From IMG/VR virus record IMGVR_UViG_3300029922_000017, positions 32,001 to 96,000 of that record: a DNA stretch of 64,000 nt; one strand, 5' to 3'. The notes beneath the pieces were generated by a model. That model worked only from the letters and a program-made list of their open reading frames with translations, did not search any database and was not told the DNA's origin. This document shows, in pieces, positions 1-38,156 of the stretch. Source of the stretch: a virus. The position numbers and the translations under genes are program-made. Position 1 is the first letter of the stretch; each line of letters starts with the position of its first letter.

Positions 1-488
1 TTTTCCGGAATATATTTGTCTAGCGATGTTAATTTATCCTTATCCAGTTTCTTTGTATGCATCATTCTATGATGATTGGGACATACATATGCCAAATTCC
101 AATGTTCATCTGCATTGTCTATTTTCTTTCCATTTATATGGTGAATATCACACGTCGATTCTTTCCATCCACAAATACAACACCCGATATTTAACCGTTT
201 AAGTATTTTACATGCAGTTCTAGAACTTACGCTTAAAATAGAATCAATTCTTCCTTTATGTTTTCCTATTGAACTATTGATTCCGTTTATACTTCTTTTT
301 TCTGGGTGTTTATCCCAATATCGTTTAAGTCCATGTCCTATATTTTGTTTTGCTGCATCTGACAGCTTTCGGTGTGAATTATTATATGTTGATGCACATG
401 ACAAACTACAAAACTTTCCTCTGTTATTACCAGTTGAATATTTCGTTTCAAATTCTTTATTACAATTTACGCAATTTAATGTATTCAT
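1..488 (-). CDS. HNH homing endonuclease (3'-truncated by window edge)
   Basis: Own translation from ATG 488: MNTLNCVNCNKEF...FCSLSC...CCICGW...DIHHING...NLAYVCPNHHRMMH; Zn-finger plus HNH motif; TATTTATA just upstream of ATG. Confidence 0.85.
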   Translation of the reverse strand, partial: MNTLNCVNCNKEFETKYSTGNNRGKFCSLSCASTYNNSHRKLSDAAKQNIGHGLKRYWDKHPEKRSINGINSSIGKHKGRIDSILSVSSRTACKILKRLNIGCCICGWKESTCDIHHINGKKIDNADEHWNLAYVCPNHHRMMHTKKLDKDKLTSLDKYIPE

Positions 489-662
489 ATACTATAAATA
501 TACGTGTAGTAGTCGAATCTATGATTTATTTTGTAAATTTTAACAGTTTTCCCCGCTACCCCTACGGAATAATCTTGCATATTAAAGTAATCTAACCTCA
601 ATTAGATACAGCCATTACTATGTTGACCGAGTTCACTCGCTCTGTGTTTATATAAACATACT

Positions 663-1334
663 TTAAAATTTATAGATTCTACCTTTCATCCATCCTTGAG
701 ATATATACAAGTCCAGTTCCTCTTTTTTTATCTTTTTATTTAATTTTTGTTTCGTTGAGTATATCCAACATGTTCCATATTGTGAATTTAATTTTCCTAT
801 TCTCTGAGATGCTTTTATTGATTGCTTATCCTTTGTTTCTTGAGTATGTTTACGACCAGACCAATGATGTCCATCTCGACTGAACTTCTCTTTTAAAGCG
901 GCTGACACTTTTATTTTCCACTCTTCCCATAATCCCTTCTCTATAAGATATTTCTTAACTTCCCTACCATTCCACAAATTTTGTTTTCCATGAGTTTCAT
1001 CTCCAATTCCCGGATATAAATTTTTACCAGTCGAATTTGCGTGTTCCCATGTTCCTTGACCTCCGAGAATAAGATTATATGTATTTTCAGATTCTACGAA
1101 TATAGCATTAACTATTTCTTTTTCTTTATCATACATTGCTTCGGAAGAATCGAATACAAATAAAATTTCTTTTTTAAAATTTTCAATCCCATATTTTGCA
1201 ATTGACCGTTTAAGTAAAGTGCCAGACCCAAGATATTCATCATTTATATTTTTTGTCTTGTGAATGCCAATATAAATTTTATTATTTATAATATTGGTAG
1301 TTTTATATACTGTATATTTATAGTTCGAGTCCAT
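663..1334 (-). CDS. GIY-YIG (Seg-like) homing endonuclease with NUMOD3 repeat
   Basis: YTVYKTTN...KIYIGIH...YLGSG motif; GRKHTQETK NUMOD3-like motif; start moved to ATG 1334, which follows TATTTATA. Confidence 0.9.
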   Translation of the reverse strand: MDSNYKYTVYKTTNIINNKIYIGIHKTKNINDEYLGSGTLLKRSIAKYGIENFKKEILFVFDSSEAMYDKEKEIVNAIFVESENTYNLILGGQGTWEHANSTGKNLYPGIGDETHGKQNLWNGREVKKYLIEKGLWEEWKIKVSAALKEKFSRDGHHWSGRKHTQETKDKQSIKASQRIGKLNSQYGTCWIYSTKQKLNKKIKKEELDLYISQGWMKGRIYKF

Positions 1335-1388
1335 GAATATAAATATGGACTCGAACATCGAAACTGTAATTTATTTTCGATTAATTTC

Positions 1389-1463
1389 TGGCTCCGAGGG
1401 CAGGTTCTGCCCCTGCACCATCTTTCTTAACAGGAAAGTGGACTACTGTTATCCCACCTCGGA
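1389..1463 (-). tRNA. tRNA-Asn(GTT), atypical T-loop
   Basis: Acceptor TCCGAGG/CCTCGGA-GCCA; anticodon arm CTTTC-CTGTTAA-GAAAG; T-loop GGCAGAA. Confidence 0.85.
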
Positions 1464-1500
1464 ATTAAAATGATTTTTTCATCTCTTCATTAAAAGAGGA

Positions 1501-1660
1501 AGGCCTCAATGACTGGACTCGAACCAATACCACGAACAGATATAGCCCGTGCGCTACCTACTATTAATAATTTCTGTGCTTACTTCATCATCCTTATTAC
1601 GTAATAATAGATGCCTTCATCCACATACTCGATACTAATAGCAATTACACCACATTGAGA
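1501..1660 (-). ncRNA. tRNA-like RNA with ~80-nt structured insertion in the D-loop
   Basis: Acceptor CTCAATG/CATTGAG; T-arm ATTGG-TTCGAGT-CCAGT; insert ~1561-1641 closed by CTATTAGTA/TATTAATAG; non-canonical anticodon loop; no CCA. Confidence 0.65.
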
Positions 1661-1666
1661 TTAAAT

Positions 1667-1738
1667 TGGTTCCTTATTCCGTGTCCCTTCCACGTCTCCG
1701 AAATTACGCATCATAGATAGTAGGGGCGTTAATAAGAA
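1667..1738 (-). ncRNA. Degenerate tRNA-sized RNA ending in ACCA
   Basis: Terminal stem TTCTTATT/AATAAGGA followed by ACCA; T-arm-like CGTG...CACG; no recognisable anticodon arm. Confidence 0.4.
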
Positions 1739-1970
1739 ATTGAATTACAAAATCATGTTACGGATAGCAGTTATACAGGAACACTGTTGTCCTACACATC
1801 AATGAGATTTCCGTGCTGTATCACACTCTCAAATGGATTTTGTAAATTGTTTTCTACTTTATAATGTAAAGGCTTACTCACCAGCAAACGAGGCCAGTGG
1901 TTGGGATTCCAACCCATTACAACCGTAGCATCAGCCGTTTTTTAGTTATCGGTTCATTACTAATAGAAAT

Positions 1971-2056
1971 TGGTGGATGCTAGGGACTTGAACCCTTTCT
2001 TTCAACTAAGTTATAGTTGATGTGCTTCCTTGGAATCTCACCTACACCAAGCAACC
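1971..2056 (-). ncRNA. tRNA-like RNA with non-canonical anticodon arm
   Basis: GGTTGCT/AGCATCC-ACCA acceptor; GGG-TTCAAGT-CCC T-arm; enlarged D-loop; TCAACTA-TAACT-TAGTTGA arm. Confidence 0.65.
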
Positions 2057-2062
2057 ATAAAT

Positions 2063-2140
2063 TGGTTTTGGACACAGATTTCATACTGTAAAAACTCCCC
2101 AACAGAGAGTGGTGTTATGAATATTAACACTAATCCAAAA
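2063..2140 (-). tRNA. Divergent tRNA-Asn(GTT)-like
   Basis: TTTTGGA/TCCAAAA-CCA; ACTCT-CTGTTGG-GGAGT arm; degenerate T-loop TATGAAAT. Confidence 0.55.
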
Positions 2141-2241
2141 TTTTAAACATCAACAGAAATATCAACACTTTTTATGATTGTAAACTCATAATCATATTGT
2201 AAACATTGAAGATTATGATAGTTTATTATTTTCAGTTTTGG

Positions 2242-2315
2242 TGGTGGAGAAAAAGAGAATCGAACTCTTATATACGAATTGCAAATCCGTCGTTCTACCA
2301 TTGAACTACTTCCCC
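2242..2315 (-). tRNA. tRNA-Cys(GCA)
   Basis: Cloverleaf with loop TTGCAAT; T-loop TTCGATT; 3' CCACCA. Confidence 0.9.
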
Positions 2316-2438
2316 ATTAAAAAATTATTATTTATTCTCCTTATTGGGGAAGAACCACGAATATTATACTATGATGAAAAACATGATAAAGTTTTCTCTT
2401 TATCCATACGGCATATGCCTATATAATATTAAATAAAT

Positions 2439-2508
2439 TGGAGCAAGAGAATAGGGTTGTCTATTATTTCCACTCGGATGAGTGGCGTTCTCATTAAACT
2501 ACTCATGC
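2439..2508 (-). tRNA. Degenerate tRNA-Gly-like RNA
   Basis: GCATGAG/CTCTTGC-TCCA acceptor; CCACTC-ATCC-GAGTGG collapsed anticodon loop; non-canonical T-loop. Confidence 0.55.
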
Positions 2509-2779
2509 ATAAATTGTCAGCCCGACGTGCGAGCCGATTTGAGCTACCTTTAGGTAAAGAGGTTCCGGCTTATTTTAATATCCGCCTCCCGATATTTTAT
2601 ATTAAATTACTTTTATTCAGTTAATAAAACCTTTGTAATTAAACAAGGTTGAAATTGTTATATTATATACTGAGTGGAGAGCATATAATAATTAAGTTAG
2701 TGTTGCCCACGGTTCGTATAGTCCACTATTCACATTATTCTAGGATTGAAGATTATCAATTCAATGATGCGTTATTAAA

Positions 2780-2854
2780 TGGTGGGGTCGGATGGATTTG
2801 AACCATCGTCTCTGCCCGCAATGGGCAGCATACTAAACACTATACGACAACCCC
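2780..2854 (-). tRNA. tRNA with non-canonical anticodon loop (CATTGCG)
   Basis: Good acceptor GGGGTTG/CGACCCC-ACCA and T-arm TTCAAAT; CTGCC-CATTGCG-GGCAG lacks U33 and purine 37. Confidence 0.75.
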
Positions 2855-2938
2855 ATAATAATTTTCATTTTTTAAAGTTGAAACTCTTAATAACATTGCA
2901 ATCATTGATGATTATACGTTTTTTAAGATTTTCATATT

Positions 2939-3014
2939 TGGTGCGGCAACGGAGATTCGAACTCCGACTTTTGATTTGGAAGACCAACATGCTACCGTTG
3001 AACATCACTACCGC
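2939..3014 (-). tRNA. tRNA-Gly(TCC)
   Basis: GCGGTAG...loop CTTCCAA...TTCGAAT...GCACCA. Confidence 0.9.
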
Positions 3015-3016
3015 AT

Positions 3017-3610
3017 TTAAATTTTAATATTATAATTTTTACACCATTTTCTTACTGCATTATCACTTACCCCGAATTTTTTCCCTATTTGTGTCATTGG
3101 AAGATTTTTAATCATTAATTCTAATTCGTTTTTTAATGGATGAACACATTTCCGTTGTCCATTAGCTCTACATTTATGAGAACAAAATTTTTGTTGAAAC
3201 GTTTTAGTATTAAATATTGAATTGCATGTTGGACATGTATGAGTATAATATTTTGGATTTGCAATATGTATTTTATTTTTCCAAGGAATGTTGGAAACTA
3301 TTAATTTTCTTCCGTCATAGTTATTTACTCTATTTAGAAATTCTTCGGTATTGTTATCTGCATGATGTATCATATGACAATTAGCACATAACAAATCACA
3401 CTTTTCTACTTCTGCCCAATACTTTTCCCAATTTGTCGTGATTGCGCTGGACAATCCAAATTCTTTTTGGGATGGGTCACGATGATGAAAATGAAATGCA
3501 GCTATGTTGCCACTCCACCCGCATCTTATGCATATTCCACCTTTTAATTTTACAGCTTCACGTTTTAATAGAAACCGTCTTATTTTTGTATTGTATGATG
3601 ATTTTGTCAT
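3017..3610 (-). CDS. HNH homing endonuclease with Zn-finger and C-terminal HTH
   Basis: GGICIRCG...FHFHHRDP...KCDLLCANCH; C-terminal IGKKFGVSDNAVRKW HTH; start ATG 3610 after TATTTATA. Confidence 0.9.
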   Translation of the reverse strand: MTKSSYNTKIRRFLLKREAVKLKGGICIRCGWSGNIAAFHFHHRDPSQKEFGLSSAITTNWEKYWAEVEKCDLLCANCHMIHHADNNTEEFLNRVNNYDGRKLIVSNIPWKNKIHIANPKYYTHTCPTCNSIFNTKTFQQKFCSHKCRANGQRKCVHPLKNELELMIKNLPMTQIGKKFGVSDNAVRKWCKNYNIKI

Positions 3611-3666
3611 ACCTATAAATATAGCTAAACAATAAAAGAATAGCAATTATTTTTAAGTTCGAATAA

Positions 3667-3739
3667 TGGTGCTCCCTACCGGAATCGAACCGATGTAACT
3701 TTCTCATCAAGAAGCGCACTACCACTGTGTTAAAGGAGC
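3667..3739 (-). tRNA. tRNA with degenerate anticodon arm (GAT-like loop on Thr-like body)
   Basis: GCTCCTT/AGGGAGC-ACCA; T-loop TTCGATT; anticodon arm TTC-TTGATGA-GAA weakly paired. Confidence 0.65.
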
Positions 3740-3747
3740 ATTGGAAT

Positions 3748-3822
3748 TGGTGCGCTTGCCGAGATTCGAACTCGGTTCCGACTGCTTAAGAGGCAGTGCT
3801 TCACCATCAAAGTTTCAGGCGC
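3748..3822 (-). tRNA. tRNA-Lys(CTT)
   Basis: CTGC-CTCTTAA-GCAG arm; full cloverleaf; CCA. Confidence 0.92.
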
Positions 3823-3832
3823 ATTAAAAAAT

Positions 3833-3907
3833 TGGTGCATCCATCCAGAGTTGAACTGAAATCCCAAGGGTAAAAGCCTTGTAGTCTACCGATTGACTTA
3901 TGAATGC
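3833..3907 (-). tRNA. tRNA-Lys(TTT)
   Basis: CAAGG-CTTTTAC-CCTTG arm; CCA. Confidence 0.9.
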
Positions 3908-3949
3908 ATAAATGTAAGTTTTTAATAAGATATTGACAAACTTACAAAG

Positions 3950-4195
3950 TTATTTTATGTGATTTTTTAGTAAATCTCCGGTCTTAATTAATTCCTCGGC
4001 AATATCACATTCCGATTTTTTACTACAAATTCGAGAACAATAAAGTTCTCGAATTAACCATCCATAATCATGAATAAACGATGATATGGCTTCATCTTTA
4101 TCATTTATTTTTCGTAAATATTTATGCTCATCCAGATGTTTTTGGATAACATCGATTTGAGTTTTCATGAATTCTGATAAGTGTTGGCAACTCAT
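3950..4195 (-). CDS. Hypothetical protein (Cys/His-rich)
   Basis: 81-aa ORF preceded by TATTTAT; lies within the tRNA array. Confidence 0.7.
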   Translation of the reverse strand: MSCQHLSEFMKTQIDVIQKHLDEHKYLRKINDKDEAISSFIHDYGWLIRELYCSRICSKKSECDIAEELIKTGDLLKNHIK

Positions 4196-4240
4196 ATTAA
4201 ATAAATATCAACCAGAATAAATGAAATATCAAGTTTTAAA

Positions 4241-4328
4241 TGGTCAGGCGGATGGGCGTCGAACCCACATGAAGCTTTCGCTACCAGATTCACAATCTGG
4301 GACATTAACCAATTATGCTACCAGCCTG
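4241..4328 (-). tRNA. tRNA-His(GTG) with long variable arm
   Basis: CCAGA-TTGTGAA-TCTGG; variable hairpin AGC-GAAA-GCT; discriminator A, no encoded G-1. Confidence 0.85.
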
Positions 4329-4339
4329 TTTATTTACTA

Positions 4340-4415
4340 TGGTAGTGCTGGCAGGAATCGAACCTAGCGTAGCTCATTTGAAGGACGAGCGAATCTACCA
4401 ATATTCTACAGCACC
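4340..4415 (-). tRNA. tRNA with TTC (Glu) anticodon and C33
   Basis: GGTGCTG/CAGCACT-ACCA; CTCGT-CCTTCAA-ATGAG arm. Confidence 0.75.
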
Positions 4416-4430
4416 ATTAAAAATATTCAA

Positions 4431-4516
4431 TGTTATAGTTGGATTCGAACCAACGAAGATATTTCTACCTTATCCCATACACGATGGGACAACTTCAACC
4501 ACTCGTTCATATACCA
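4431..4516 (-). tRNA. Class II (Tyr-like body) pseudo-tRNA with non-canonical loop
   Basis: T-arm GTTGG-TTCGAAT-CCAAC; long variable arm; TCCCAT-CGTGT-ATGGGA; no encoded CCA. Confidence 0.6.
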
Positions 4517-4560
4517 TTGATTTTTACAAATTTACTAGTTAACATTTCACTTTGTAAATT

Positions 4561-4653
4561 TGGCACCTCGTATTAGAATTGAACTAATATTAACGGAATG
4601 ATTACCGCATCTAATTTTGGAGATTAGTGCCTTACCGGTCGAGCCAACGAGGT
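4561..4653 (-). tRNA. tRNA-Trp(CCA) with long variable arm
   Basis: CTAAT-CTCCAAA-ATTAG; variable hairpin GCGG-TAATCATT-CCGT; ACCTCGT/ACGAGGT-GCCA. Confidence 0.85.
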
Positions 4654-4856
4654 ATTTAAAAAATTAATACTCTGATTAATCCGGCTCAGAGTAATTGAGG
4701 CCAAATAAACATCATAAGAGGTTTATTAAACGACATTTAACCCAATGTCTCCGAGGGAATTATTGCCATCATAATTAATTAGATTAAAATGGACTAGTAT
4801 TTTACCACGGCTATAATCGCAATGTCATAGCAATAGGACTTCTCCTAGAAGGTATA

Positions 4857-5471
4857 TTATAAATATTTTTTCAATTCTTCAATGCATTTGATTACATTTG
4901 CTTTTACTTCTTTTGCCGTGAATCTTACAATCGTCCAGCCTTGTGATTTACTAAATATATCACGACGAGCATCAATTTTTTTAATCTTTTCCGATGTATG
5001 AGTTCCACCATCAACTTCAACGTCTATTTTTTTATCTACAAACGCAAAATCGTATTCATAGATTCCATTTCTGAATGCATACGTCCATCCAGTTATATTA
5101 GATGCTATCAAAGCATTCTCAAAGACTTGTTCTGGATATGATTTTCTAGATGAATGATTTATCAAATATGGAACTTTATCAGGATGTTCTGTTAAATATT
5201 TAATTCTAGCTTCGGAAATTTTTTGCTTAGTTTCTTCGGAATGTTTTTTTAAACCTCGTCCATTTTTTCGGGATAATTTATTCGCTGCTGATGTATTTCG
5301 AGTTGATTTAAATCGTCCAGACCTTATTGCGTTAAATATTACTGATTGTCCTGCTCCAAAATACGACGATATTTCTCGCCAAGTATGCCCCGCATCATAG
5401 TAAGATTGGATTTCATTCCAGTCATATTTTGATTTGTTGTTATGTCTGTAATTCTGAGGGCGTCGGGGGAA
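4857..5471 (-). CDS. PD-(D/E)XK (Vsr/DUF559-like) homing endonuclease with HTH/NUMOD3; canonical start missing
   Basis: YEYDFAF...IDVEVDGGTH...DARRD...GWTIVRF; frame open to 5471 (DWNEIQSYYDAGHTWREI...KKHSEETKQKIS) with no in-frame ATG. Confidence 0.7.
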   Translation of the reverse strand, partial: FPRRPQNYRHNNKSKYDWNEIQSYYDAGHTWREISSYFGAGQSVIFNAIRSGRFKSTRNTSAANKLSRKNGRGLKKHSEETKQKISEARIKYLTEHPDKVPYLINHSSRKSYPEQVFENALIASNITGWTYAFRNGIYEYDFAFVDKKIDVEVDGGTHTSEKIKKIDARRDIFSKSQGWTIVRFTAKEVKANVIKCIEELKKYL

Positions 5472-5540
5472 TTAATCCCAATTTAAAAGCTGAATATTGA
5501 GTTTTAAGATTGAATATTTTCAACCATCTCCGGATATTGG

Positions 5541-5624
5541 TGGTGCTGCCGATGGGACTCGAACCCATGTTGTTTAAATACCGAGTTAAAAGCTCGGTCC
5601 AGTCGCCGCTATGGAAACGACAGC
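5541..5624 (-). tRNA. tRNA-Lys(TTT) with extended variable region
   Basis: CCGAG-CTTTTAA-CTCGG; ~12-nt variable region; T-loop TTCGAGT; CCACCA. Confidence 0.88.
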
Positions 5625-5942
5625 AAAAATTTATGTATCTCTCTACATCTGTCAAGCCTACGTCAAAGCGGGCTTTCGCTCTACAAATATGTTTTTATTG
5701 AAGATTTTAATCGGGAACCCTAAACAATTTAACCGGATTAAAATTGGAATGACATCATTCCCTGACTGCTATCGTCAAATCTCGGTCTGGGCTATTGACC
5801 CGCACCGCACGGAATATGGTGTTTCTTGGCACACCTACTACTCTAAGCCACTAAAATTCTAATCTTTTTATAGTGTTTCGGTATCTTTTTTACCGGACTC
5901 ACTCTTAACTTTCACTATCTTACCACATTATATTTAATTGTC

Positions 5943-6017
5943 AACAACAAACAACCGACCTTTTTTGGTCGGTTTATAAGTTTTTTATTTCTATTTCTTC
6001 TAACTTATATTCCGACC
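5943..6017 (-). terminator. Terminator with overlapping antiterminator (attenuator)
   Basis: AACCGACC-A6-GGTCGGTT + GTTTGTTGTT; alternative pairing GGTCGG-AA-TATAAGTT (6017-6002) with AACTTATA-AA-CCGACC (5982-5967). Confidence 0.75.
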
Positions 6018-6145
6018 TCGTGCTTTTTATCTTCCGCTCCTGCTAACCCGACAACTGTATTTCTATTATATGAATGGGAGCGGAGTGGTGCTACCCACTT
6101 AATTGTGGGGCAACTAAACTTCGGTTGTTTCATATTACTATTCAT
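6005..6145 (-). CDS. Putative attenuator leader peptide (46 aa)
   Basis: MNSNMKQPKFSCPTIKWVAPLRSHSYNRNTVVGLAGAEDKKHEVGI*; stop codon lies inside the antiterminator strand. Confidence 0.65.
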   Translation of the reverse strand: MNSNMKQPKFSCPTIKWVAPLRSHSYNRNTVVGLAGAEDKKHEVGI

Positions 6146-6221
6146 ACTAAATTATATATATCTTCGACTTTTACTTTTCTTTAAAATTTCTTAATAAATC
6201 TTTCATTAATTTATTATGTGA

Positions 6222-6818
6222 ACATTCTACACTATTTTCGGAGAATGTCAAGTTCTTTTTAAAATATCGGTTTTACCTAGTTACATCCCCGAAAGTTTTT
6301 TAACGCACTAGGACTGCGGTAATTCATTATTACTTGCCGTTCGTCAGAATTACAATTGAGAACGTGCCAGTCAATTTACATGGAAAACTGACAAACCAAA
6401 TTTAACTATATCGACATTCTACACTATTTTCTAAGAATGTCAAGTTCTTTTTTACTTTCGTCTGGAAATTCGATTTTAGCAAACATCGGCTTATATTCAA
6501 ATTCCCACATATACCAATCTATCATCTGCTTCTTCCAGAAATTTCTTAACATTCTCAACTTCACTATTACTTTCAATGTCATTCATATTACACTATTTTT
6601 TCTAAATGTCAACTACTTTTTTAAAAGTGATGTTAATTATAACCTTTGACCGAGGGTTGTGTTGTCGACTGATAAAATATGCTACTATCCAAATTCACAT
6701 ATTTCCTGCGGCTCCATAAATTACTTTGATAGTTCATTTGGACATTCCCTATCGTTTCACGCCGACACCAACTCTAATTAACAAAATGGATTATAGACTA
6801 TTTTTCGGATTTGTCAAG
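6222..6818 (-). promoter_or_regulatory. Four tandem sigma70-type promoters facing the tRNA array
   Basis: TTGACA-N17-TAGAAT/TAATAT/TATAAT-type elements at ~6224-6251, 6416-6443, 6586-6612 and 6791-6817; the first two are near-identical ~35-bp repeats. Confidence 0.75.
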
Positions 6819-7062
6819 AGATTTCAAATTATTTTTTAATTTTTCTTCGAAATACTTATCCTACTCATCTTCTCCTAACATATCAAACGAGTCAAACATA
6901 ACGTCCATGACACTTCTCCGTCTGCCATTCTCTTTAAATTTTTCCCAAGTTTCATCATTCATAAAATATTATCTCCCTCGTAATTTCTTACATTCTAAAT
7001 TGGCACTATTACATTCGCCGCCAAATCTTAAACATGCGATTGAAAACATAAAAAAGAGCAAT

Positions 7063-7488
7063 TCACTTCCACTCTCCTAACTCTATCAATGTGCTTTTAA
7101 TCTCTTGCCAATCGGTGGCTCCGACATAGCCACTTTTATCGTCTAAAAGTATATTGAAATAAAATTTTTGCGAGAAGTCACATAACTCCGTAGATTTACA
7201 CTCTGGATTTTCATTTATATAATGGAATTTTAAATCGTGCCGGCGCAAAATATCATTTATAGAGTCGGAATGGCTAGATGTCCATAATATAGTTTTATGT
7301 AAGTTGGACTTGTATAATACATCTAACACTTCTTTCGCTACTGGATATAACATTGCGCCCGAATTCATTCGATTATACTTGCCCTCGATTACCGTATCAT
7401 GCAAATCAATTGCCCAGTAAATTTTATTCCACTTACGGATTTCCTTCTGTTCAAACGTATGTTTGATTATGTCTCTAATTGATTTCAT
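7063..7488 (-). CDS. HAD-superfamily phosphatase-like protein
   Basis: WAIDLHDTV (DxxxT motif I), ILWTS (motif II), LLDDK (motif IV). Confidence 0.75.
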   Translation of the reverse strand: MKSIRDIIKHTFEQKEIRKWNKIYWAIDLHDTVIEGKYNRMNSGAMLYPVAKEVLDVLYKSNLHKTILWTSSHSDSINDILRRHDLKFHYINENPECKSTELCDFSQKFYFNILLDDKSGYVGATDWQEIKSTLIELGEWK

Positions 7489-7952
7489 ACTTTACTTATA
7501 TCTCCAATATCCAATAATCTCGGAACATCTATCCAATTATCAGTTACTATAGTATTGCTCAATTTTCCTTTGTAGGTATCTAAATCTTCAGCCGTAGGGG
7601 AAAATAAAATTTTAACTATATTTTCAGGAAGATGGAACATAACCTCCGGTCTATCATCAATAAAATGAGTTAGTTCCAGTGCTTTTGCAAATATAGATTT
7701 GTCTTTCCGCTCAAAACAAAAGTATAAATTTTCAAATGGAACATTAGTATTTTTTAAAACTTCATATTTTAATAACCATTCCTCGACGTGCCACTTCTGA
7801 ACTGAATTACATTTTGATATAAAATATATATTATCAAATCGGGAATGTAAATTTTTGATTACATCAAATGAATTTGGGGCTGGTTCATCTTTATTACCGG
7901 TTGCCCGATTTCCTTTAATTGTCCATCCAATATCAATTCCTAAGTTTCTCAT
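7485..7952 (-). CDS. HAD-like protein
   Basis: LGIDIGWTI, FISK, K...HFIDDR motifs; ATGA overlap with neighbours. Confidence 0.7.
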   Translation of the reverse strand: MRNLGIDIGWTIKGNRATGNKDEPAPNSFDVIKNLHSRFDNIYFISKCNSVQKWHVEEWLLKYEVLKNTNVPFENLYFCFERKDKSIFAKALELTHFIDDRPEVMFHLPENIVKILFSPTAEDLDTYKGKLSNTIVTDNWIDVPRLLDIGDISKV

Positions 7953-8278
7953 ACTTCAATATATTTAATCGGTATTCCAAGTTTAATTGCCAGTGCTATT
8001 TCTCCCGCCACGCCTTTTGATTTATCCCAACCTTCCATTTTAAGAACCCACAATTCATCACATTTCGGCAAGATAAGTTCTAAATAATTCTTCCAATAAT
8101 TCCAATCGGTTGGCAATTCATGAGCAACTGCCATTGGATGTGTGGCGGCAATTGGAGAATAAATGTAATGTCCATCCTTCATCAAATTTGCGGTCACTTC
8201 CATTACTTGTTCAAATCGTTGTCTTTGAACATCTATATCAGAATGTGAATAGGGCGATGCTAAATAGATTAATTTCAT
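7949..8278 (-). CDS. DUF1937 / nucleoside 2-deoxyribosyltransferase-like protein
   Basis: IYLASPYS...YSPI..TH...CDELWVL...GW..SKGV..EI..A...GIPI. Confidence 0.85.
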   Translation of the reverse strand: MKLIYLASPYSHSDIDVQRQRFEQVMEVTANLMKDGHYIYSPIAATHPMAVAHELPTDWNYWKNYLELILPKCDELWVLKMEGWDKSKGVAGEIALAIKLGIPIKYIEV

Positions 8279-8320
8279 TCTAAGGAGTATAACAGATATT
8301 TAGAATAAGTCAAGAAATTA

Positions 8321-8394
8321 TGGAGCGAGTGAAGGGAATCGGACCCTCGTATAAAGTTTGGAAAACTTCCATTCTACCATTGAATTACACTCGC
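8321..8394 (-). tRNA. tRNA-Gly(TCC)
   Basis: GCGAGTG/CACTCGC-TCCA; loop TTTCCAA. Confidence 0.9.
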
Positions 8395-8462
8395 TTTAAA
8401 TAGAGACTTCACAAGTCATGGTCTCTTTTCGAGATTGGGTAACTTGCCTCTAATCTCTGAAA

Positions 8463-8538
8463 TGGTAGCGATAATAGGAGTCGAACCTATATTGACAAAG
8501 CTTATGAGACTTCCGCATTACCATTATGCTATACCGCC
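8463..8538 (-). tRNA. tRNA-Met/Ile2 (CAT)
   Basis: Loop CTCATAA; T-loop TTCGACT; ACCA. Confidence 0.9.
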
Positions 8539-8556
8539 ATTAACTATAAATAGTGT

Positions 8557-9343
8557 TTACTTTTTCTTTTTTAGCGTTTTTCTTGCTTTTCTAAGCAATT
8601 CTGCTTTCTTTTTTTTAGAATATCCTGATACTCGTGTTCTTACAATGTCTGTTTCTTTAGACAGTCCATTTATGAAATCGATATTATCCCGAATTTGTTT
8701 AGTTGTTAATTTTCTCTCAACCAAATTTTCAGGTGGCTCTATTAACTGACGAGCATTAATTTCTCGAATTAATCTTTCCTTTTGAGCATCCGTCGCTCTT
8801 TGCATAGATGGAAAATATTTCGATTTCATGTTGATATAATATCAGATTTTAAATAAAAGTCAAGCAATATTATCAATTGCATCTTTTACCTTTTCAATGA
8901 TGGCATCATGCGTATCTTCAATAACATCCTGAAAATCATTGCTTAATTGACCAATTAAATCATTTACAATCTTCCATGTAAATTCTTGCCACTTTTGGCG
9001 GTCTTCATATGAAAGAGAATTTACTTCTGGGTAATGGGAATAATGTTCTTTCCAATTAATGTCAAAGGTTTTGCCGATGTTTGATAATTTATCCAGTGTT
9101 TCGTCGTATTTTTTATTCATGTTGATTTTTCCGAGACTCTTCTTCTAGGTATTTATTATAATCTTTTTTCCAAATATCTTCACCGAAAGTTTCTTCTATA
9201 AATTGACGTGGAGTTTTTTTAACTTTTAATGCATGTTTAACCAAGCATTCTATGTCATATGGGTCTCCCTCTTCAAATGCATCAAATCCAAGTAATTTTT
9301 TAGAAATTTTATTGCACTTGGATTTAAATAGTTGCTCCGTCAT
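8557..9343 (-). CDS. Three small hypothetical proteins (8557-8829, 8860-9120, 9113-9343)
   Basis: Co-oriented ORFs with phage-like codon usage; a TTGACT promoter overlaps the stop at 8860. Confidence 0.7.
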
Positions 9344-9476
9344 ATTTAATGTTGAGGAAATGTTATAACTTGCCGATTGTCCATATAAATATTATCCATA
9401 TCAAAATTATTATCGCCAGTTTTACATCCGGCTTCGGACAATAATATTAAAATTAATATGAAAAATAATAAAAAGT

Positions 9477-10361
9477 TCATAGGGGTGATGCTTTTCCGAT
9501 TTTAACATAAAACCGGTTCACCAATTCAATAATTTCATCGTTCAATCTCAATTTTGCTTTCTTAATTAATTTCGTCGGAATCGTTTCCGTGCCATAAAAT
9601 GCTTCGGCAATGGAACCGGCAATTGCTGCATTGGTATCAGTATCTCCGCCCAAATAAATTGCATTTCTAATTGCCGACTCATAATCCGTAGACTCCATAA
9701 AACATACCAATGCTTGAGGAGCAGTCACGTTACATCGAATAGAGGTCTTTGGAATTGCTCTTGCGTCTTCCACTGACATATCTAACATATGTCCAAATTG
9801 TTCTTCGACATATGCTTTAATTTCCTGCTTAGTCTTACCATGACGAGCCATCCAAATTGCACTAGTAATTGATTTTACTCCACGCTCAGATTCAGGAGAA
9901 TTATGAGTCTGTTGAATGCTTGAGATTGCCATTTTATACATGTTATCCATATTAGATTCGGGAAACCTAGAATAATACATAGCAATTGGGCTACACCGCA
10001 TCATACATCCATTAGCATAACTATTATTAACAGTATAATATTCGCTATCCTTGGTTTTAACCCATTCTTTAAATGCTCCACCATATCCTCTGTCTGGATA
10101 TTTTACTGCCCACATTTTATAAGATGCAGCGAAGTTAGGAAGTGCCAGTATATTGTCTGAATTTGGCATTATTATTGATAATATCGTTTCGGCAATTGCA
10201 CATGTCAATACAGTATCATCCGTAAAACGACTGTTAGAATAGAACATGTTAAAGTTCTTTGTGCCAACCGGACGTTTCGGGTATTGTGGGCTACTTTCAT
10301 ATACCGACCCTGCGATGTCGCCAATAATTGCTCCTATCATAGTTTTATTTCTTTCTTCCAA
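9477..10361 (-). CDS. ADP-ribosylglycohydrolase (DraG/ARH family)
   Basis: GAIIGDIAGS, FTDDT, SYANGCMMR, TH, GGDTDTNAAIAGSIAEA motifs. Confidence 0.95.
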   Translation of the reverse strand: MEERNKTMIGAIIGDIAGSVYESSPQYPKRPVGTKNFNMFYSNSRFTDDTVLTCAIAETILSIIMPNSDNILALPNFAASYKMWAVKYPDRGYGGAFKEWVKTKDSEYYTVNNSYANGCMMRCSPIAMYYSRFPESNMDNMYKMAISSIQQTHNSPESERGVKSITSAIWMARHGKTKQEIKAYVEEQFGHMLDMSVEDARAIPKTSIRCNVTAPQALVCFMESTDYESAIRNAIYLGGDTDTNAAIAGSIAEAFYGTETIPTKLIKKAKLRLNDEIIELVNRFYVKIGKASPL

Positions 10362-10548
10362 AAATATTTATATTTCATTCCTTCAATATCCGGTTTACAA
10401 TTAATACAATAATAATCTCCAGCTTTAATCGATTCCCATTGATATTCATTTAAAAATGAATTTTCTGGCTGTATCACTTCTTGTAATTCTAAATTGCAAC
10501 ATGGACATCTCATATTATTTTAATAATGTTATTGGTGCATATTCCGAA

Positions 10549-11652
10549 TCAATTAAATATTGGGGTTGGGTCTATTAAATCATTCCAATCAGATTTATTA
10601 TCGCCAACTTCTTCAAATGCACGATATATTCCATGTTTATATAATTCAATATGAAGCATGGAAGTGTTATGACCTTGGATGTCAGGTCTTTCTTTTCCTT
10701 CTTTAAGGACTCTCTTTACATTTCCTATAAAATCCCCAGATTTTAATTTCTTTCCAATTTTCATTCCAAAATCAATATCAATTTCACCATAACAAACTAC
10801 TCCGGATGCACCTTCTACTAAAACACATTTAGTATCATTCCACCACGGAGTTTGTTGAGAAGAACCAGTGAACTCTTCAATTCCTACTACGGTTCCAGAT
10901 TCAACTGCATATACGGATGCCCCATCATTGGTATATAAATCAACACCGGTATGAGTATGATGTTTTCTTTTTGTTAAAAATGCGCCGGGATGTCCTTTAA
11001 TTGGAATTCCAGAACAATTAGTGTTTTTCGAATCATCAAATCTCCAATGTAATGGGAAATGCCATTTCAATGAATTATTTACTTCTTTAACAATATCCGA
11101 AATATCAGCCAATGCTCCCATACCTTCCGTTTTGCAAGCCAACATTTTTGATTGTGGCATTACAATCTTATATCCCCAGTTGGTTAATTTATCCAAGTGT
11201 TCTTTAGTAACTGGATGTTCCCACATCGCTGTATTCGCAGCGCCGGCAATAATTAGGGGTCTATTCATATCCCACGCACGAACAACCGAGGTTAATAAGT
11301 TATCACATAATCCATTGGCAATTTTTCCCATTGTATTTAATGAACATGGGGCAATTACAAGTGCCGATGCTTGATTTCTTATATTAATATGAAGAACTCC
11401 ATCTCCAGTTTTCCACTTGCTAGTGATACGTCCTGTCGTTGGGTCTTGCCATTGCCATTCGTCGTCATCAACATAATAAATTCCACCTAGTTTTTCAACT
11501 AACAGTGCCAGTTCCAAGCAATCTATAAAATGTCTGGCTGAGTTAGTAATTATAGTATCGACTATAAAATGTTCACTCAATTGAGTGACCAGCTTCTTCC
11601 ATAATACAGTGGCAACGCTACCAGTCAATCCTAACAGTATTCGACGTTTCAT
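10549..11652 (-). CDS. HFCD flavoprotein (PPC decarboxylase/CoaC-like) fused to an M23 peptidase domain
   Basis: ILLGLTGSVA, LHI, APCSLNTMGKIANGLCDNLLT, NTAMW, LAC..EG.GAL; C-terminal HTGVDL...HIELY M23 motifs. Confidence 0.88.
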   Translation of the reverse strand: MKRRILLGLTGSVATVLWKKLVTQLSEHFIVDTIITNSARHFIDCLELALLVEKLGGIYYVDDDEWQWQDPTTGRITSKWKTGDGVLHINIRNQASALVIAPCSLNTMGKIANGLCDNLLTSVVRAWDMNRPLIIAGAANTAMWEHPVTKEHLDKLTNWGYKIVMPQSKMLACKTEGMGALADISDIVKEVNNSLKWHFPLHWRFDDSKNTNCSGIPIKGHPGAFLTKRKHHTHTGVDLYTNDGASVYAVESGTVVGIEEFTGSSQQTPWWNDTKCVLVEGASGVVCYGEIDIDFGMKIGKKLKSGDFIGNVKRVLKEGKERPDIQGHNTSMLHIELYKHGIYRAFEEVGDNKSDWNDLIDPTPIFN

Positions 11653-11727
11653 AATTGAAGTATAGCAGAATTTATGAAAAAGTCAATTATTTTCTTTTTC
11701 GTTTAACATGTAGTTGATTTCTATTAA

Positions 11728-12345
11728 ATGGATGTAATTTCTTGTTATAATGTTGTTCGGTTGGAAATTGAACAGTTGTATTTAAATAAATGTCGAGAAA
11801 ATCCAAATACTAATTACAATTTTGCGTATGATGCTAGACGACCTATGGCTGGCAAAAAACACACTCTAGAAGCCAGACTCAAAATTAGTAATGCTGTAAG
11901 TGGATGTGGAAACGGTATGTTTGGGAAATCTCCAACTATAGAGCATAGACAAAAAATAAGTAATTCTAATATGGGAAAAAATAAAGGAAATAAACATTAC
12001 AATTTTGGAAAACATTTAGACGAAGAACTTAGACGTAAAATAAGTAAATCAGGAACTGGATTAAAACGCACAGATGAAACTAAACAAAATATAAGTAAAG
12101 CATTAACGGGAAGAGTATTCACGTCCGAACATATACAAAAACTAAGAAATCCAAATATCAAACTTAGAGGAAGTAGTCATCCAAATTTTAACCCTACGAT
12201 TTACAATTTAAAAAATACTAGAACCAATGAAGAATTTCGAGGAACTAGGCATGATTTTATTGAAAAATATAACATTCCATCCGGAAGATGTTCGAAATTA
12301 CTAAATGGTAAAGTGCCAAGTATTAAAAAATGGATACTTATATAA
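11728..12345 (+). CDS. NUMOD3-repeat homing endonuclease remnant (GIY-YIG N-terminus absent)
   Basis: Multiple GKKHT.E.R.KIS repeats; only the E..YN tail of the GIY-YIG domain is present; antisense to neighbours. Confidence 0.7.
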   Translation: MDVISCYNVVRLEIEQLYLNKCRENPNTNYNFAYDARRPMAGKKHTLEARLKISNAVSGCGNGMFGKSPTIEHRQKISNSNMGKNKGNKHYNFGKHLDEELRRKISKSGTGLKRTDETKQNISKALTGRVFTSEHIQKLRNPNIKLRGSSHPNFNPTIYNLKNTRTNEEFRGTRHDFIEKYNIPSGRCSKLLNGKVPSIKKWILI

Positions 12346-18433: not shown

Positions 18434-19745
18434 CATGAACTACCCATCCCCTAAAGGAGATGGGTTTCCTCTTTCATCCAACTCTTTTTGAGTTGTCCAG
18501 AGGCTACTTCGGGTTGTCCCAACCCTAGTTTTTTGATATTGTTTGCTGCTAAAATGTCTCTGTCATGTGTTACTTTACACATCGGACAAGTCCATTCTCT
18601 ATCTTTCAAAGTTAGAGAATGATTTATGTATCCACAAGAACATAATTTGGATGATGGTTCAAATCGTCCAATTTGGATGAAGTTCTTTCCATACCAATCA
18701 CATTTGTATTTCAAAATGTTGGTAAACGAATTCCATCCTACATCAGCAATTTGTTGATGTCTCATTTTTTCAAGGAAACGATATTCGTCTCTTTCATCAA
18801 CATCTTTATTTTCCATCATATCCTTTGTAGATAGAGTTTCCATACAAATTGTCTTCACTTGGTTATCGTGTGTCAACTTATGACTTAACTTGTGGTGGAA
18901 ATCTTTTCTACAATTGGTTATTTTTTCGTGTGTTTTAGCAACCTTTATTCTTTGTTTGTTTCTATTATTACTTCCTTTTGTTTTCTTTGATAATTGTCGT
19001 TGTTGTTTCTTGAGTTTTTTGAGAAATCGTTTTAATGGTTTAGGATTTTCAATCTTTTCTCCGTTGGAGAATGTAGCAAAGTGTTTCAATCCCAAATCAA
19101 TTCCAATGGTTGTTTTTTCATTTACTTTTGGATTGGATGGAAGTTCTTTCCCATCTTCAACCAAAATAGAAATGAAGTATTTGCCTGTGGTAGTTCGTGA
19201 GACATAAGACGAAGATATGTCTCCCTCAAATTGTCTGTCAAAGACACACGTAATTCCTCCAAGGAACTTTGGAATGATTACTTTTCCTTTTTCAAAATCC
19301 ACTTTAGTATTTTGTGGAATACGAAACTTTTGGTCATTCCTCTTACATTTGAATTTTGGATATGCTACTTTCTTTTTGAAAAATGAAGTGTATGCTTTAT
19401 CCAAATCCTCAAGTTTGGACTGGATAGAAAGAGAACCGACTTCGGCAAGCCAAGGTTGTTCACCCTTCTTCATTTTTGGAAGTTCTGCTTGAAGTTCGTA
19501 TCTTGAGAGATTTGTTTTATCTTTTTGGTAGGCTTCCATTTTCTTACCTAATGCCCAATTCCACACAAATCTTACACATCCAAAATGCTTCTCCAAAAGA
19601 ACTTTTTGTTCCTTGTTTGGATATATCCTATATTTGAATGCTCGTATCACAACAATACATATCATTGACTTTTAGAAAACATCAACTTATTTTCTAAATT
19701 GTGTCAATTCATCCCACCCGCTAAAGCAAGTGGGATTTCTTGCCA
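18434..19745 (-). mobile_element. IS200/IS605-family (IS1341-type, tnpB-only) element
   Basis: Subterminal hairpins with CTTTAG loops at ~19710-19736 (left) and ~18442-18465 (right, ending GGTAGTTCA); no tnpA. Confidence 0.85.
18451..19665 (-). CDS. tnpB: RNA-guided endonuclease TnpB
   Basis: HTH_OrfB N-terminus (AFKYRIYP...HFGCVRFVWN), RuvC D (IGIDLG), E (CMETL), D (DRDILAA), Zn finger. Confidence 0.95.
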   Translation of the reverse strand: MICIVVIRAFKYRIYPNKEQKVLLEKHFGCVRFVWNWALGKKMEAYQKDKTNLSRYELQAELPKMKKGEQPWLAEVGSLSIQSKLEDLDKAYTSFFKKKVAYPKFKCKRNDQKFRIPQNTKVDFEKGKVIIPKFLGGITCVFDRQFEGDISSSYVSRTTTGKYFISILVEDGKELPSNPKVNEKTTIGIDLGLKHFATFSNGEKIENPKPLKRFLKKLKKQQRQLSKKTKGSNNRNKQRIKVAKTHEKITNCRKDFHHKLSHKLTHDNQVKTICMETLSTKDMMENKDVDERDEYRFLEKMRHQQIADVGWNSFTNILKYKCDWYGKNFIQIGRFEPSSKLCSCGYINHSLTLKDREWTCPMCKVTHDRDILAANNIKKLGLGQPEVASGQLKKSWMKEETHLL

Positions 19746-31471: not shown

Positions 31472-32494
31472 ATGTTGTTTTTTGTTAATGTTAATTGTTA
31501 CTGACAAAGGAGAGTATAGAGATTTTTATCTTAAAGTCAAAAAGAAAATGGATTTATTTTAATTTATCCATATTTTGCCATTTATAGACAGTTTCACAAA
31601 ATTCATAATTAAAATCCCGCATATAGCAAATGCCCTGAAAAAATCCAATATGGTTACTCAAACCCCATGCCAGACTTTTCGGTGAATCTGCTAATGCAAT
31701 GGCAGACTTTTGGCAACCCGAATCAATGTAAGCAATCAATTCTTCAAGAGTGCAAGTTTTGTAATTCATATGTTGATAGAAGTATATCTATTTTTATACT
31801 AAAGTCAATTACGATCTATGGAAAAATTAATTCCATTTTTATTCCATCTTGATTTATGCCAGTCATTATGAACAATTTCAAGACATAACTCGAATGTGAA
31901 AATGTTAATGGTAGTTATTACATTGTAATAATCCCAGTTACAATGAAAGCCAAACCATTCATATTCATACCGATTGCAAACTAATGCCCACGGCCATTTT
32001 GGATTGTGAAATAATGTTTTCATATGTTTCTAAAGTATATCTATTTTAATTCAAATGTCAAATAAATTTCAAATTATTTACTTTAATGATATTATAGTAA
32101 CTCGAATGTGATATTTACTTGTCGGTGAAAATAACAATAAAATTGCCGATACCTTTTTCAAGATACCGGCAACCAACATATGACCACCACCGGAATAAAC
32201 AAAAGGGAATTTAGGTAAATCAATCGTGTGATTATTATACAAATTGCCGGTGAATAGTCAACGAATTTCGTCAGGAAATACAAAAATAGCAGTGCCAGCG
32301 TGTAATTCTTTACAATCTTCCAAAAGATTTACTGCGAGATTTCCGCTCTGACAATAATCTACAAAGGTGCCAACTCCCTTATGAGCAGGATTGTTGTCCA
32401 ACTCAAATCGAATGACATCACCTTTAACGTAATTAGTTTTCATATTGGTATTATATTTAAACTCGGTGAGAAGTCAAGAAATTAAATTTTGTTC

Positions 32495-37688: not shown

Positions 37689-38156
37689 ATGAATAAAATA
37701 CAAATCCCCGAAGGCTGGTATCAACTCAATCCCGAAGAACGGGTTCGTGAAGGCGATAAATTTTTCCGCCCCTCATTTGGTGAATGGGAGCTATCTGGAA
37801 ATTATCCCAGCGGACAGCAATCCACTGAATATGTTTATATTCGCAATGGTTCACCCCCTACCCCGTTCAAGATTGGCGATAAGGTTGAAGTTTCTGGCAA
37901 AACCGGAGTAATTCATGGTGAACGCACATATCTGAAAGCTGGTTTTGGATACAGTATCAAGTTTGATGAAGCGATTGAAAATAAAGACTTGGGGCATCTT
38001 TATGTTATTTCTATTCGGGAAGACCTTATCAAACATCAAGAAAAGCCAATTATGGCGGCTGGTTATGAAGTCAAATTTGAATCTGGTCAAATCAAGGTTG
38101 GTTGCCAGACCATTTCAAATGAAGTCGTGAAACAAATTGCGGCCAAGTTGAAATAA
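37689..38156 (+). CDS. VGCQ-family paralog 1
   Basis: C-terminal IKVGCQTI shared with 47296, 48040 and 53016. Confidence 0.75.
   Translation: MNKIQIPEGWYQLNPEERVREGDKFFRPSFGEWELSGNYPSGQQSTEYVYIRNGSPPTPFKIGDKVEVSGKTGVIHGERTYLKAGFGYSIKFDEAIENKDLGHLYVISIREDLIKHQEKPIMAAGYEVKFESGQIKVGCQTISNEVVKQIAAKLK

Follow-up and report, generated by a model that had tools for sequence, protein, structure and literature searches.

Attenuator Leaders and the Phage Locus

Ribosome-mediated attenuators are known from the trp, his, thr, and leu leaders of enterobacteria. Here, we analyzed a locus of similar anatomy in a virus genome, the IMG/VR record IMGVR_UViG_3300029922_000017, which comprises 138.9 kb. The window, that is, the whole stretch of DNA under analysis, has 64,000 nucleotides (nt) and corresponds to bases 32001-96000 of the record; positions refer to the window unless the genome is named. 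The locus consists of a 46-codon open reading frame (ORF) at 6145-6005 on the minus strand, preceded by up to four promoter-like sites and followed by an intrinsic terminator, beyond which lie most of the transfer RNA (tRNA) genes of the phage. Phage tRNA arrays are now viewed as a counter-measure to host tRNA-cleaving defences, and, to our knowledge, the control of their expression is largely unexplored.

The phage unit resembles the trp, his, thr, and leu leaders in having a short ORF before an intrinsic terminator, and an antiterminator and a terminator with a common strand. As in those leaders, a ribosome terminating at the leader stop would mask the antiterminator 5' arm, whereas a stall further upstream would free this arm. 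Unlike them, the phage ORF has no codon run for one amino acid. It also has no clear helix of the 1:2 type, so the prediction for untranslated RNA is read-through instead of termination. Additionally, the phage peptide, with 46 residues, has a conserved sequence, the downstream genes are separated from the terminator by a strong promoter, and they are phage RNA and tRNA genes instead of a biosynthetic operon.

A likeness in terms of the trigger is provided by the vmlR leader of Bacillus subtilis, in which ribosome stalling on an upstream ORF leads to antitermination and compromised protein synthesis generally induces the response (PMC9226507). The phage unit would share with vmlR a stall on a small ORF that selects the antiterminator, and a trigger that is general translation impairment, not one amino acid (PMC9226507). 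However, an anti-antiterminator layer, NusG-dependent pausing, a response to specific antibiotics, and a protein-gene target, which are described for vmlR, were not found in the phage unit (PMC9226507).

The trpL attenuator of Sinorhizobium meliloti yields the small RNA rnTrpL and the trans-acting leader peptide peTrpL, and it is a precedent for a terminated transcript and a leader peptide that are each functional (PMC7298713, PMC7968998). A dual function of this kind would reconcile a conserved peptide with an attenuator. However, trpL is Trp-specific and bacterial, and a trans function of the phage peptide or RNA would be an analogy only. In the T5-like phage SP15, the tRNA-Tyr gene has a strong promoter of its own directly ahead of it, and the phage described here likewise has strong promoters before tRNA genes and a tRNA-rich region interspersed with small ORFs (PMC11555353). 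The portion of the SP15 study used here deals with promoter strength and describes no attenuation, and its tRNA promoters speak for the view that phages can supply tRNAs without a gate (PMC11555353).

A literature search judged by title and abstract opening returned no attenuator ahead of phage tRNA genes. New here are the ORF family, a competing helix that is not due to chance, the dominance of the antiterminator in naked RNA, and a modelled flip of the fold by the ribosome. We tentatively read the unit as a generic ribosome-mediated attenuator that adds to downstream expression rather than gating it.

Competing Helices and the Modelled Ribosome Switch

The terminator (5974-5943, on the minus strand like all features of the unit) comprises an 8-base-pair (bp) stem with five G-C pairs and an A6 loop, forming a hairpin at 5974-5953, and the U-rich tail GTTTGTTGTT; alone, it folds at -13.4 kcal/mol. 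Pairing and folding delimited two further elements. Region 2, the antiterminator 5' arm, has 16 nt (6017-6002) and covers codons 43-46 plus the stop codon. Region 3, the antiterminator 3' arm, lies at 5982-5967, and its last 8 nt are the terminator 5' arm. Together, regions 2 and 3 form a helix of 6 + 8 bp (14 bp) around a 2x2 AA/AA internal loop. The original prediction, made from the letters of the window alone, had placed the stop codon inside a 14-bp helix that overlaps the terminator 5' arm, and the pairing of 6017-6002 with 5982-5967 confirmed it. The further hairpin proposed inside the ORF was also found, with 8 bp between 6084-6077 and 6040-6033; the loop of this inner hairpin (6084-6033) encodes the variable peptide segment in which indels are frequent.

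The competing 2:3 helix is not a product of chance. Its duplex energy was -17.6 kcal/mol versus -7.55 +/- 1.79 kcal/mol for dinucleotide shuffles, and this value was reached by 1 of 2000 shuffles. Antiterminator and terminator share a strand and are mutually exclusive, and their local energies differ by 0.7 kcal/mol (-16.1 kcal/mol for the antiterminator versus -16.8 kcal/mol for the terminator together with an A-U hairpin). The naked transcript, taken at the decision point, formed the terminator with a probability of 0.007-0.010 and the antiterminator with a probability of 0.80. Ranked by the strength of its upstream competitor, the terminator came second among the 25 terminator-like hairpins of the genome.

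The effect of translation was modelled as a 30-nt ribosome mask in equilibrium folding, which is a model and not a measurement. Folding with and without the footprint gave, in silico, the switch that had been predicted. The terminator formed in 8/8 pairs when the A site was at the stop or at codon 40 and beyond. At five A-site positions from codon 17 to codon 36, the antiterminator formed in 14/14 pairs across all four modelled transcripts. Within this model, the position of the ribosome selects the helix.

The helix also depends on codon choice, as it was retained in 18 of 1000 synonymous recodings. The fold of the ORF plus tail had -56.1 kcal/mol in the native sequence versus -45.5 +/- 4.1 kcal/mol in synonymous recodings (z = -2.57; 2 of 500 as low).

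A 10-nt perfect complement between codons 6-9 and the terminator 3' arm was considered as a second lock and rejected, as it is within chance (324/2000 shuffles). The same complement leaves no fold-back of 5' and 3' ends of the hok type beyond chance, and other properties of a hok-like type I toxin messenger RNA (mRNA) were not found either, as the peptide is hydrophilic, with at most about seven apolar residues in a row. No T-box leader was matched by Rfam in window 1-12000 at an expect value (E) of at most 1, and the antiterminator has a symmetric AA/AA loop with no bulge. The same Rfam search returned tRNAs and two chance-level matches, and nothing else.

The Conserved Peptide Family

For the peptide, we performed an exhaustive search of 1.84 billion representative proteins, followed by a profile search. 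The exhaustive search resulted in three small homologues and two artefacts, and the profile search extended the family to eight small proteins of related uncultivated peat phages, including the copy in the window. The seven homologues (P0024, P0026, P0027, and P0029-P0032) have 44-57 amino acids (aa) and 56-84% identity, and 17 columns are invariant across the family. The homologues have a common start, and in five of seven the stop lies five residues past an AEDKK motif; indels in the family are in frame and limited to residues 25-35. A protein database shows intact ORFs only, which is an ascertainment bias; despite it, the common start and stop position argue for a translated frame. Judged by these alignments, the ORF is a real conserved gene. 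The repeat proteins P0023 (3932 aa) and P0025 (1915 aa) were rejected as relatives, as a weak match (E 0.001-0.004 per copy) had been summed over many copies.

The start context and codon usage of the ORF were consistent with those of other genes of the phage. A TATAAT element at 6156-6151 lies 5 nt ahead of the ATG, a start context typical for this phage, in which TATA[ACT]T occurs 3-9 nt before the start of 47/173 long ORFs versus 3.5% of all ATGs. The codon score was 0.058 per codon, which is the 20th percentile of coding windows and is exceeded by 6% of spurious small ORFs. Shine-Dalgarno-like motifs occur at background level in the phage (10 of 173 long ORFs); the missing Shine-Dalgarno motif was therefore discarded as an argument against translation, since the genes of this phage generally have none.

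Genome-wide, 27% of the long ORFs carry TATA[ACT]T, in many cases as GATATACTC, with its end 3-9 nt (mode 7) ahead of the start. This placement suggests phage-type promoters giving leaderless or very short-leader mRNAs.

Database comparisons of the peptide gave little further information. Neither Pfam nor PHROGs returned a family match (two members match one Pfam model at E = 0.039, below any threshold), and the Atlas gave no usable match. AlphaFold on the peptide with eight sequences gave a mean predicted local distance difference test (pLDDT) score of 60.1 and no secondary structure, which is uninformative. The phage's own genome has no paralogue, and cultured phages gave just two matches at E = 4 for the peptide and one 30% match for the neighbouring protein. 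Five related records were reached through neighbouring proteins (L003, L004, L008-L010; 30-52% identity). The peptide family was unmatched in 5/5 of them, and no tRNAs lie near the 155-aa homologue; four of the five are fragments, which makes both results uninformative. Scans of public collections for DNA of the peptide homologues were empty or gave false matches. Among the latter, L005 (a transposase-like ORF) and L006/L007 (an oxidoreductase-like gene) were rejected as chance pattern matches whose DNA carries no tRNAs.

The DNA contigs over the ORF in the metagenome runs examined (X23, X5, X7, X9, one of which is an RNA run) were identical to the window, so there was no sequence variation to use. 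The RNA run has no contig over the ORF unit; as contigs are no proof of absence, this carries no weight. A diverged contig (X5, record 5) matches 6004-6042 only; its 30 upstream letters stay open and resemble the family's middle segment, a weak hint that was not used.

The family alignment also bears on a different explanation of the strong fold. The predicted transcript 6217-5940 has -61.3 kcal/mol (z = -5.7), with 0/200 shuffles as low, and the unit could be a structured non-coding RNA of about 265 nt that extends from promoter to terminator and in which the ORF is incidental. The arms of the inner hairpin fall in invariant blocks, the indel-rich segment coincides with the loop, and the neighbouring unit described below also resembles a stable RNA. 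However, all eight family members open with the same start, five of seven homologues have the same stop, and their indels are in frame, a pattern to be read with the bias towards intact ORFs noted above. In addition, the substitutions look protein-like, the internal structure of the ORF is no stronger than that of synonymous recodings, and no Rfam family was matched. We consider a non-coding RNA improbable.

Amino-Acid Composition and Codon Choice

The original prediction had read the composition of the ORF as a signal. As it described, the ORF at 6145-6005 has 46 sense codons, of which 34 are distinct, and encodes all 20 amino acids before a TAA stop at 6007-6005. The full set of 20 was present in 1.7% of windows of 46 codons taken from long ORFs of the phage, in 1.7-2.7% of random open sequences with the same number of codons, and in 2/184 small ATG ORFs of the genome; having all 20 amino acids in 46 codons is rare, not extreme. 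Windows of 46 codons in genes had a mean of 27.5 distinct codons, and 0.65% reached 34. Given the peptide and the genome codon usage, the expected number was 32.2 +/- 1.9, with P(>=34) = 0.26; because this diversity follows from the peptide, the 34 codons are not a codon-level signal. The 18 codons ending in G or C were likewise ordinary given the peptide (P = 0.21), so neither of the two codon properties survives as evidence of selection on codons. Placement of the G/C-ending codons by RNA stems was also considered and rejected, as they occur in 9/26 paired versus 9/20 unpaired codons (p = 0.55). The completeness of the amino-acid set is the sole unusual property of the composition.

This property was followed through the family. 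Six of the eight members (44-49 residues) contain all 20 amino acids, whereas P0031 has no Ile and P0032 no Cys. In the window's copy, Trp has shifted from column 9 to column 17, which is the sole compensating event.

According to the earlier proposal, selection has placed every amino acid in the leader, and a shortage of any charged tRNA would thereby open the tRNA array. The frequency of complete sets in the family (6/8, compared with 1.7% of windows of long ORFs) speaks for it, as does the moved Trp that keeps the set complete in the window's copy, and the switch geometry would be the same as for a generic attenuator. The completeness, however, rests on a conserved block (C12, W9, Y26, I15), not on a shuffled composition, and two of four losses at single-copy residues, namely, those of Ile in P0031 and of Cys in P0032, went uncompensated. 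With just one codon for each amino acid, the sensitivity would be weak. The acidic residues Glu and Asp are restricted to codons 38, 39, and 43, which lie at or past the edge of the zone where a stall frees region 2. Once the peptide is given, the codons show no surplus diversity, and the downstream genes are served by promoters of their own. Conservation extends to the order of residues (17 invariant columns), and no run of control codons is present; neither fits a leader shaped to sample the whole tRNA pool. We regard this proposal as very unlikely; the all-20 composition is a by-product of the conserved peptide sequence and not a sampling device.

A rare-codon triplet, CTC CGC TCC, was found at 6085-6077 by codon usage and alignment. 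It encodes the invariant residues L21, R22, and S23, and usage within the synonymous families is 0.06 for CTC, 0.08 for CGC, and 0.14 for TCC. In the long ORFs, comparable triplets were counted at 5 of 21239 positions, and 11 of 1793 windows of 46 codons contained one. The cause of this rarity is ambiguous, since the same codons form the 5' arm of the inner hairpin.

Promoters and Position Relative to the tRNA Genes

Promoters were identified as consensus matches, not as mapped starts, and they are near the Escherichia coli consensus. The four sigma70 promoters that had been proposed upstream of the ORF, and a fifth after the terminator, were all recovered. P1 (6817-6790; TTGACA-16-TATAAT) has 12/12 consensus matches, P2 (6612-6585) has 10/12, and P3 (6443-6416) and P4 (6251-6224) have 11/12 each. 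P4 is the closest to the ORF, and its transcript is predicted to start near 6217. No terminator-like site was found on the minus strand from 6817 to 5974. P5 (5944-5917; TTGACA-16-TAAGAT, 10/12) adjoins the terminator tail and has the TG of an extended -10 element, and a further promoter-like site at 5655-5628 precedes the first tRNA gene.

P3 and P4 lie within a 39-nt direct repeat (6452-6414 and 6260-6222, minus strand) with 95% identity. The approximately 165 nt between the two copies have no minus-strand ORF of at least 25 aa.

The record contains 36 tRNA genes, of which 32 are on the minus strand, across genome positions 10802-40538 (about 30 kb). The unit corresponds to genome positions 37953-38145, with 30 minus-strand tRNA genes downstream and two upstream. 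The first tRNA downstream of the terminator begins at 5624, and two promoters and a folded element of approximately 290 nt lie in between. The description of a tRNA array directly downstream thus holds for the presence of 30 tRNA genes on that side, whereas the minus-strand tRNA genes are spread over about 30 kb and the first one downstream is separated from the terminator as described. The stronger claim, that the attenuator gates the array, is not supported by the layout: the downstream genes are not promoter-less, with promoter-like sites at 5944-5917 (the extended -10 promoter that adjoins the terminator) and at 5655-5628, and two tRNA genes lie upstream of the unit.

Weighing an Attenuator Against an Ordinary Gene

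As a generic attenuator, the locus would be a self-contained early transcription unit of an uncultivated peat jumbo phage, in which up to four promoters lead into a 46-codon gene and an intrinsic terminator. In untranslated RNA, the 2:3 helix would beat the terminator, and the terminator is consequently predicted to form only with a ribosome on the end of the ORF. Completed translation would result in termination. If the last codons were not reached, for whatever reason, read-through would follow. Possible causes of a stall are a shortage of tRNA or amino acids, a shut-off of translation by host defence, or slow decoding at CTC-CGC-TCC. Read-through from the upstream promoters would then raise expression of the downstream RNA and tRNA genes above what their own promoters provide. 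The results above establish the anatomy, the conserved ORF, a competing helix beyond chance, and, in silico, the switch; translation of the ORF, coupling of ribosome and polymerase, and any physiological effect are what we infer from them. It also fits the attenuator that four promoters feed a single terminator with 30/32 minus-strand tRNA genes downstream of it. The strong fold of the whole transcript (z = -5.7) and the rare-codon triplet at the invariant L-R-S, ambiguous as its cause is, also count in its favour. It is difficult to see why a plain gene would carry a helix that conceals the terminator except when a ribosome occupies the final codons.

Several results weigh against the attenuator. 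All evidence for the switch is equilibrium folding of one sequence, a modelled quantity. The leader has no convincing 1:2-type helix and its sensing zone no amino-acid run that would form a cluster of control codons. The ORF alone is no more structured than its synonymous recodings (z = -0.57), and a competitor of -13.8 kcal/mol or better precedes 3 of the 25 terminator-like hairpins and is not unique to this one. The conserved positions F10, S11, H24, D39, and K40 lie outside the predicted RNA stems; such a pattern is uncommon in leaders with no further role and agrees with a small protein that has a function. Finally, P5 directly behind the U tract and the promoter before the first tRNA look like insulation between units, and with strong promoters behind the terminator, read-through has little left to regulate.

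These points lead to an explanation that we judge nearly as probable as the attenuator, namely, an ordinary, highly expressed small early gene with its promoter(s), a 46-aa trans-acting protein, and a terminator, in which nothing is regulated. The ORF would always be translated and the terminator would always work, and the hairpin across the stop would be a structure of the 3' end or for stability, or a remnant left when the terminator arm was duplicated. Not every conserved block of the peptide matches an RNA stem, the start context of the gene is typical and the codon score is within the coding range, and the codon diversity is explained by the peptide. The terminator adjoins the following promoter, as is the case where insulated early units succeed one another, and another terminator of the genome (32141-32174) likewise has a strong upstream competitor. 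However, an ordinary gene leaves unexplained why a helix that depends on codon choice sequesters the terminator 5' arm (1/2000 shuffles; 18/1000 recodings). Moreover, AlphaFold gives the protein no fold (mean pLDDT 60.1, eight sequences), and it has no relative in Pfam, PHROGs, or the Atlas, which is a weak point, as small phage proteins often have none.

Taken as a generic attenuator, the unit retains part of the original interpretation, that is, the conserved ORF, the competition of helices, and the modelled switch, and it does not retain the sensing of all tRNAs or the gating of the array.

A more far-reaching version of the attenuator, which we hold to be unlikely, is a phage monitor of translation status that heads the 30-gene tRNA region. 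When ribosomes finish the ORF, transcription from the four strong early promoters would end at the terminator; when the ORF is left unfinished, the helix at the stop codon would form and all that transcription would enter the tRNA genes. Stalls could be caused by host anticodon nucleases, by starvation, or by a lack of tRNAs reading the Leu-Arg-Ser rare triplet. The phage tRNA-Arg(ACG) and tRNA-Ser(GGA) would read two of the three rare codons, and the loop would thereby be self-correcting. In a variant of this monitor, the conserved block K6-H24 would be an arrest peptide that stalls the ribosome at the rare triplet.

If the switch works, a phage would be seen to link the transcription of RNA genes to the condition of the translation apparatus, and the unit would also be a compact, portable sensor of translation stress. 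If it fails, there would still be a conserved family with a 46-aa phage protein that is very strongly promoted and lies beside tRNA genes.

The Phage Record and Neighbouring Elements

The completeness of the record was estimated by CheckV as 39%; at 138.9 kb, this classes the phage as a jumbo phage. Among the matches listed, sequencing runs with near-identical DNA were peat metagenomes in 24/24 cases. No DNA relative was found among 50,697 deposited phage records.

The second terminator with a strong competitor, at 32141-32174 on the minus strand, was inspected with its upstream sequence to 32260. The competitor is even stronger than that of the unit (-16.3 kcal/mol), and its segment is the spacer of an internal TTGACT-17-TATAAT promoter just past a 61-aa ORF. 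Transcripts started upstream would carry the competitor, and those from the internal promoter would not.

The folded element between P5 (5944-5917) and the promoter at 5655-5628 is a separate unit (5625-5912, minus strand) with -73.5 kcal/mol, z = -3.5, and no Rfam family. A peat metatranscriptome contig of 162 nt is exactly equal to 5658-5819, with a depth of 12.6, and is the run's only contig on a 1.1-kb stretch; carry-over of DNA is possible. The unit around 5658-5819 may be a stable small RNA. Stable small RNAs occur in other phage tRNA clusters.

Among the tRNA genes, ARAGORN predicted some on the minus strand with lengths of the long-variable-arm type, comprising two copies of tRNA-His (88-89 nt), one tRNA-Trp (93 nt), and one tRNA-Lys (84 nt), at 4241-4328, 4429-4517, 4561-4653, and 5541-5624. 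Rfam placed a further tRNA at 1392-1463 (minus strand, 46 bits) that was not called by ARAGORN. Outside the window, at genome positions 20656-20730, ARAGORN predicted a tRNA with anticodon ATA, labelled Tyr. An HNH endonuclease ORF (3017-3646) and a weaker HNH-like ORF (4857-5165) lie among the tRNA genes, both on the minus strand. Additionally, a full-length transposase (phrog_506, E = 5e-121) was found within the phage record at window positions 18451-19665 on the minus strand.

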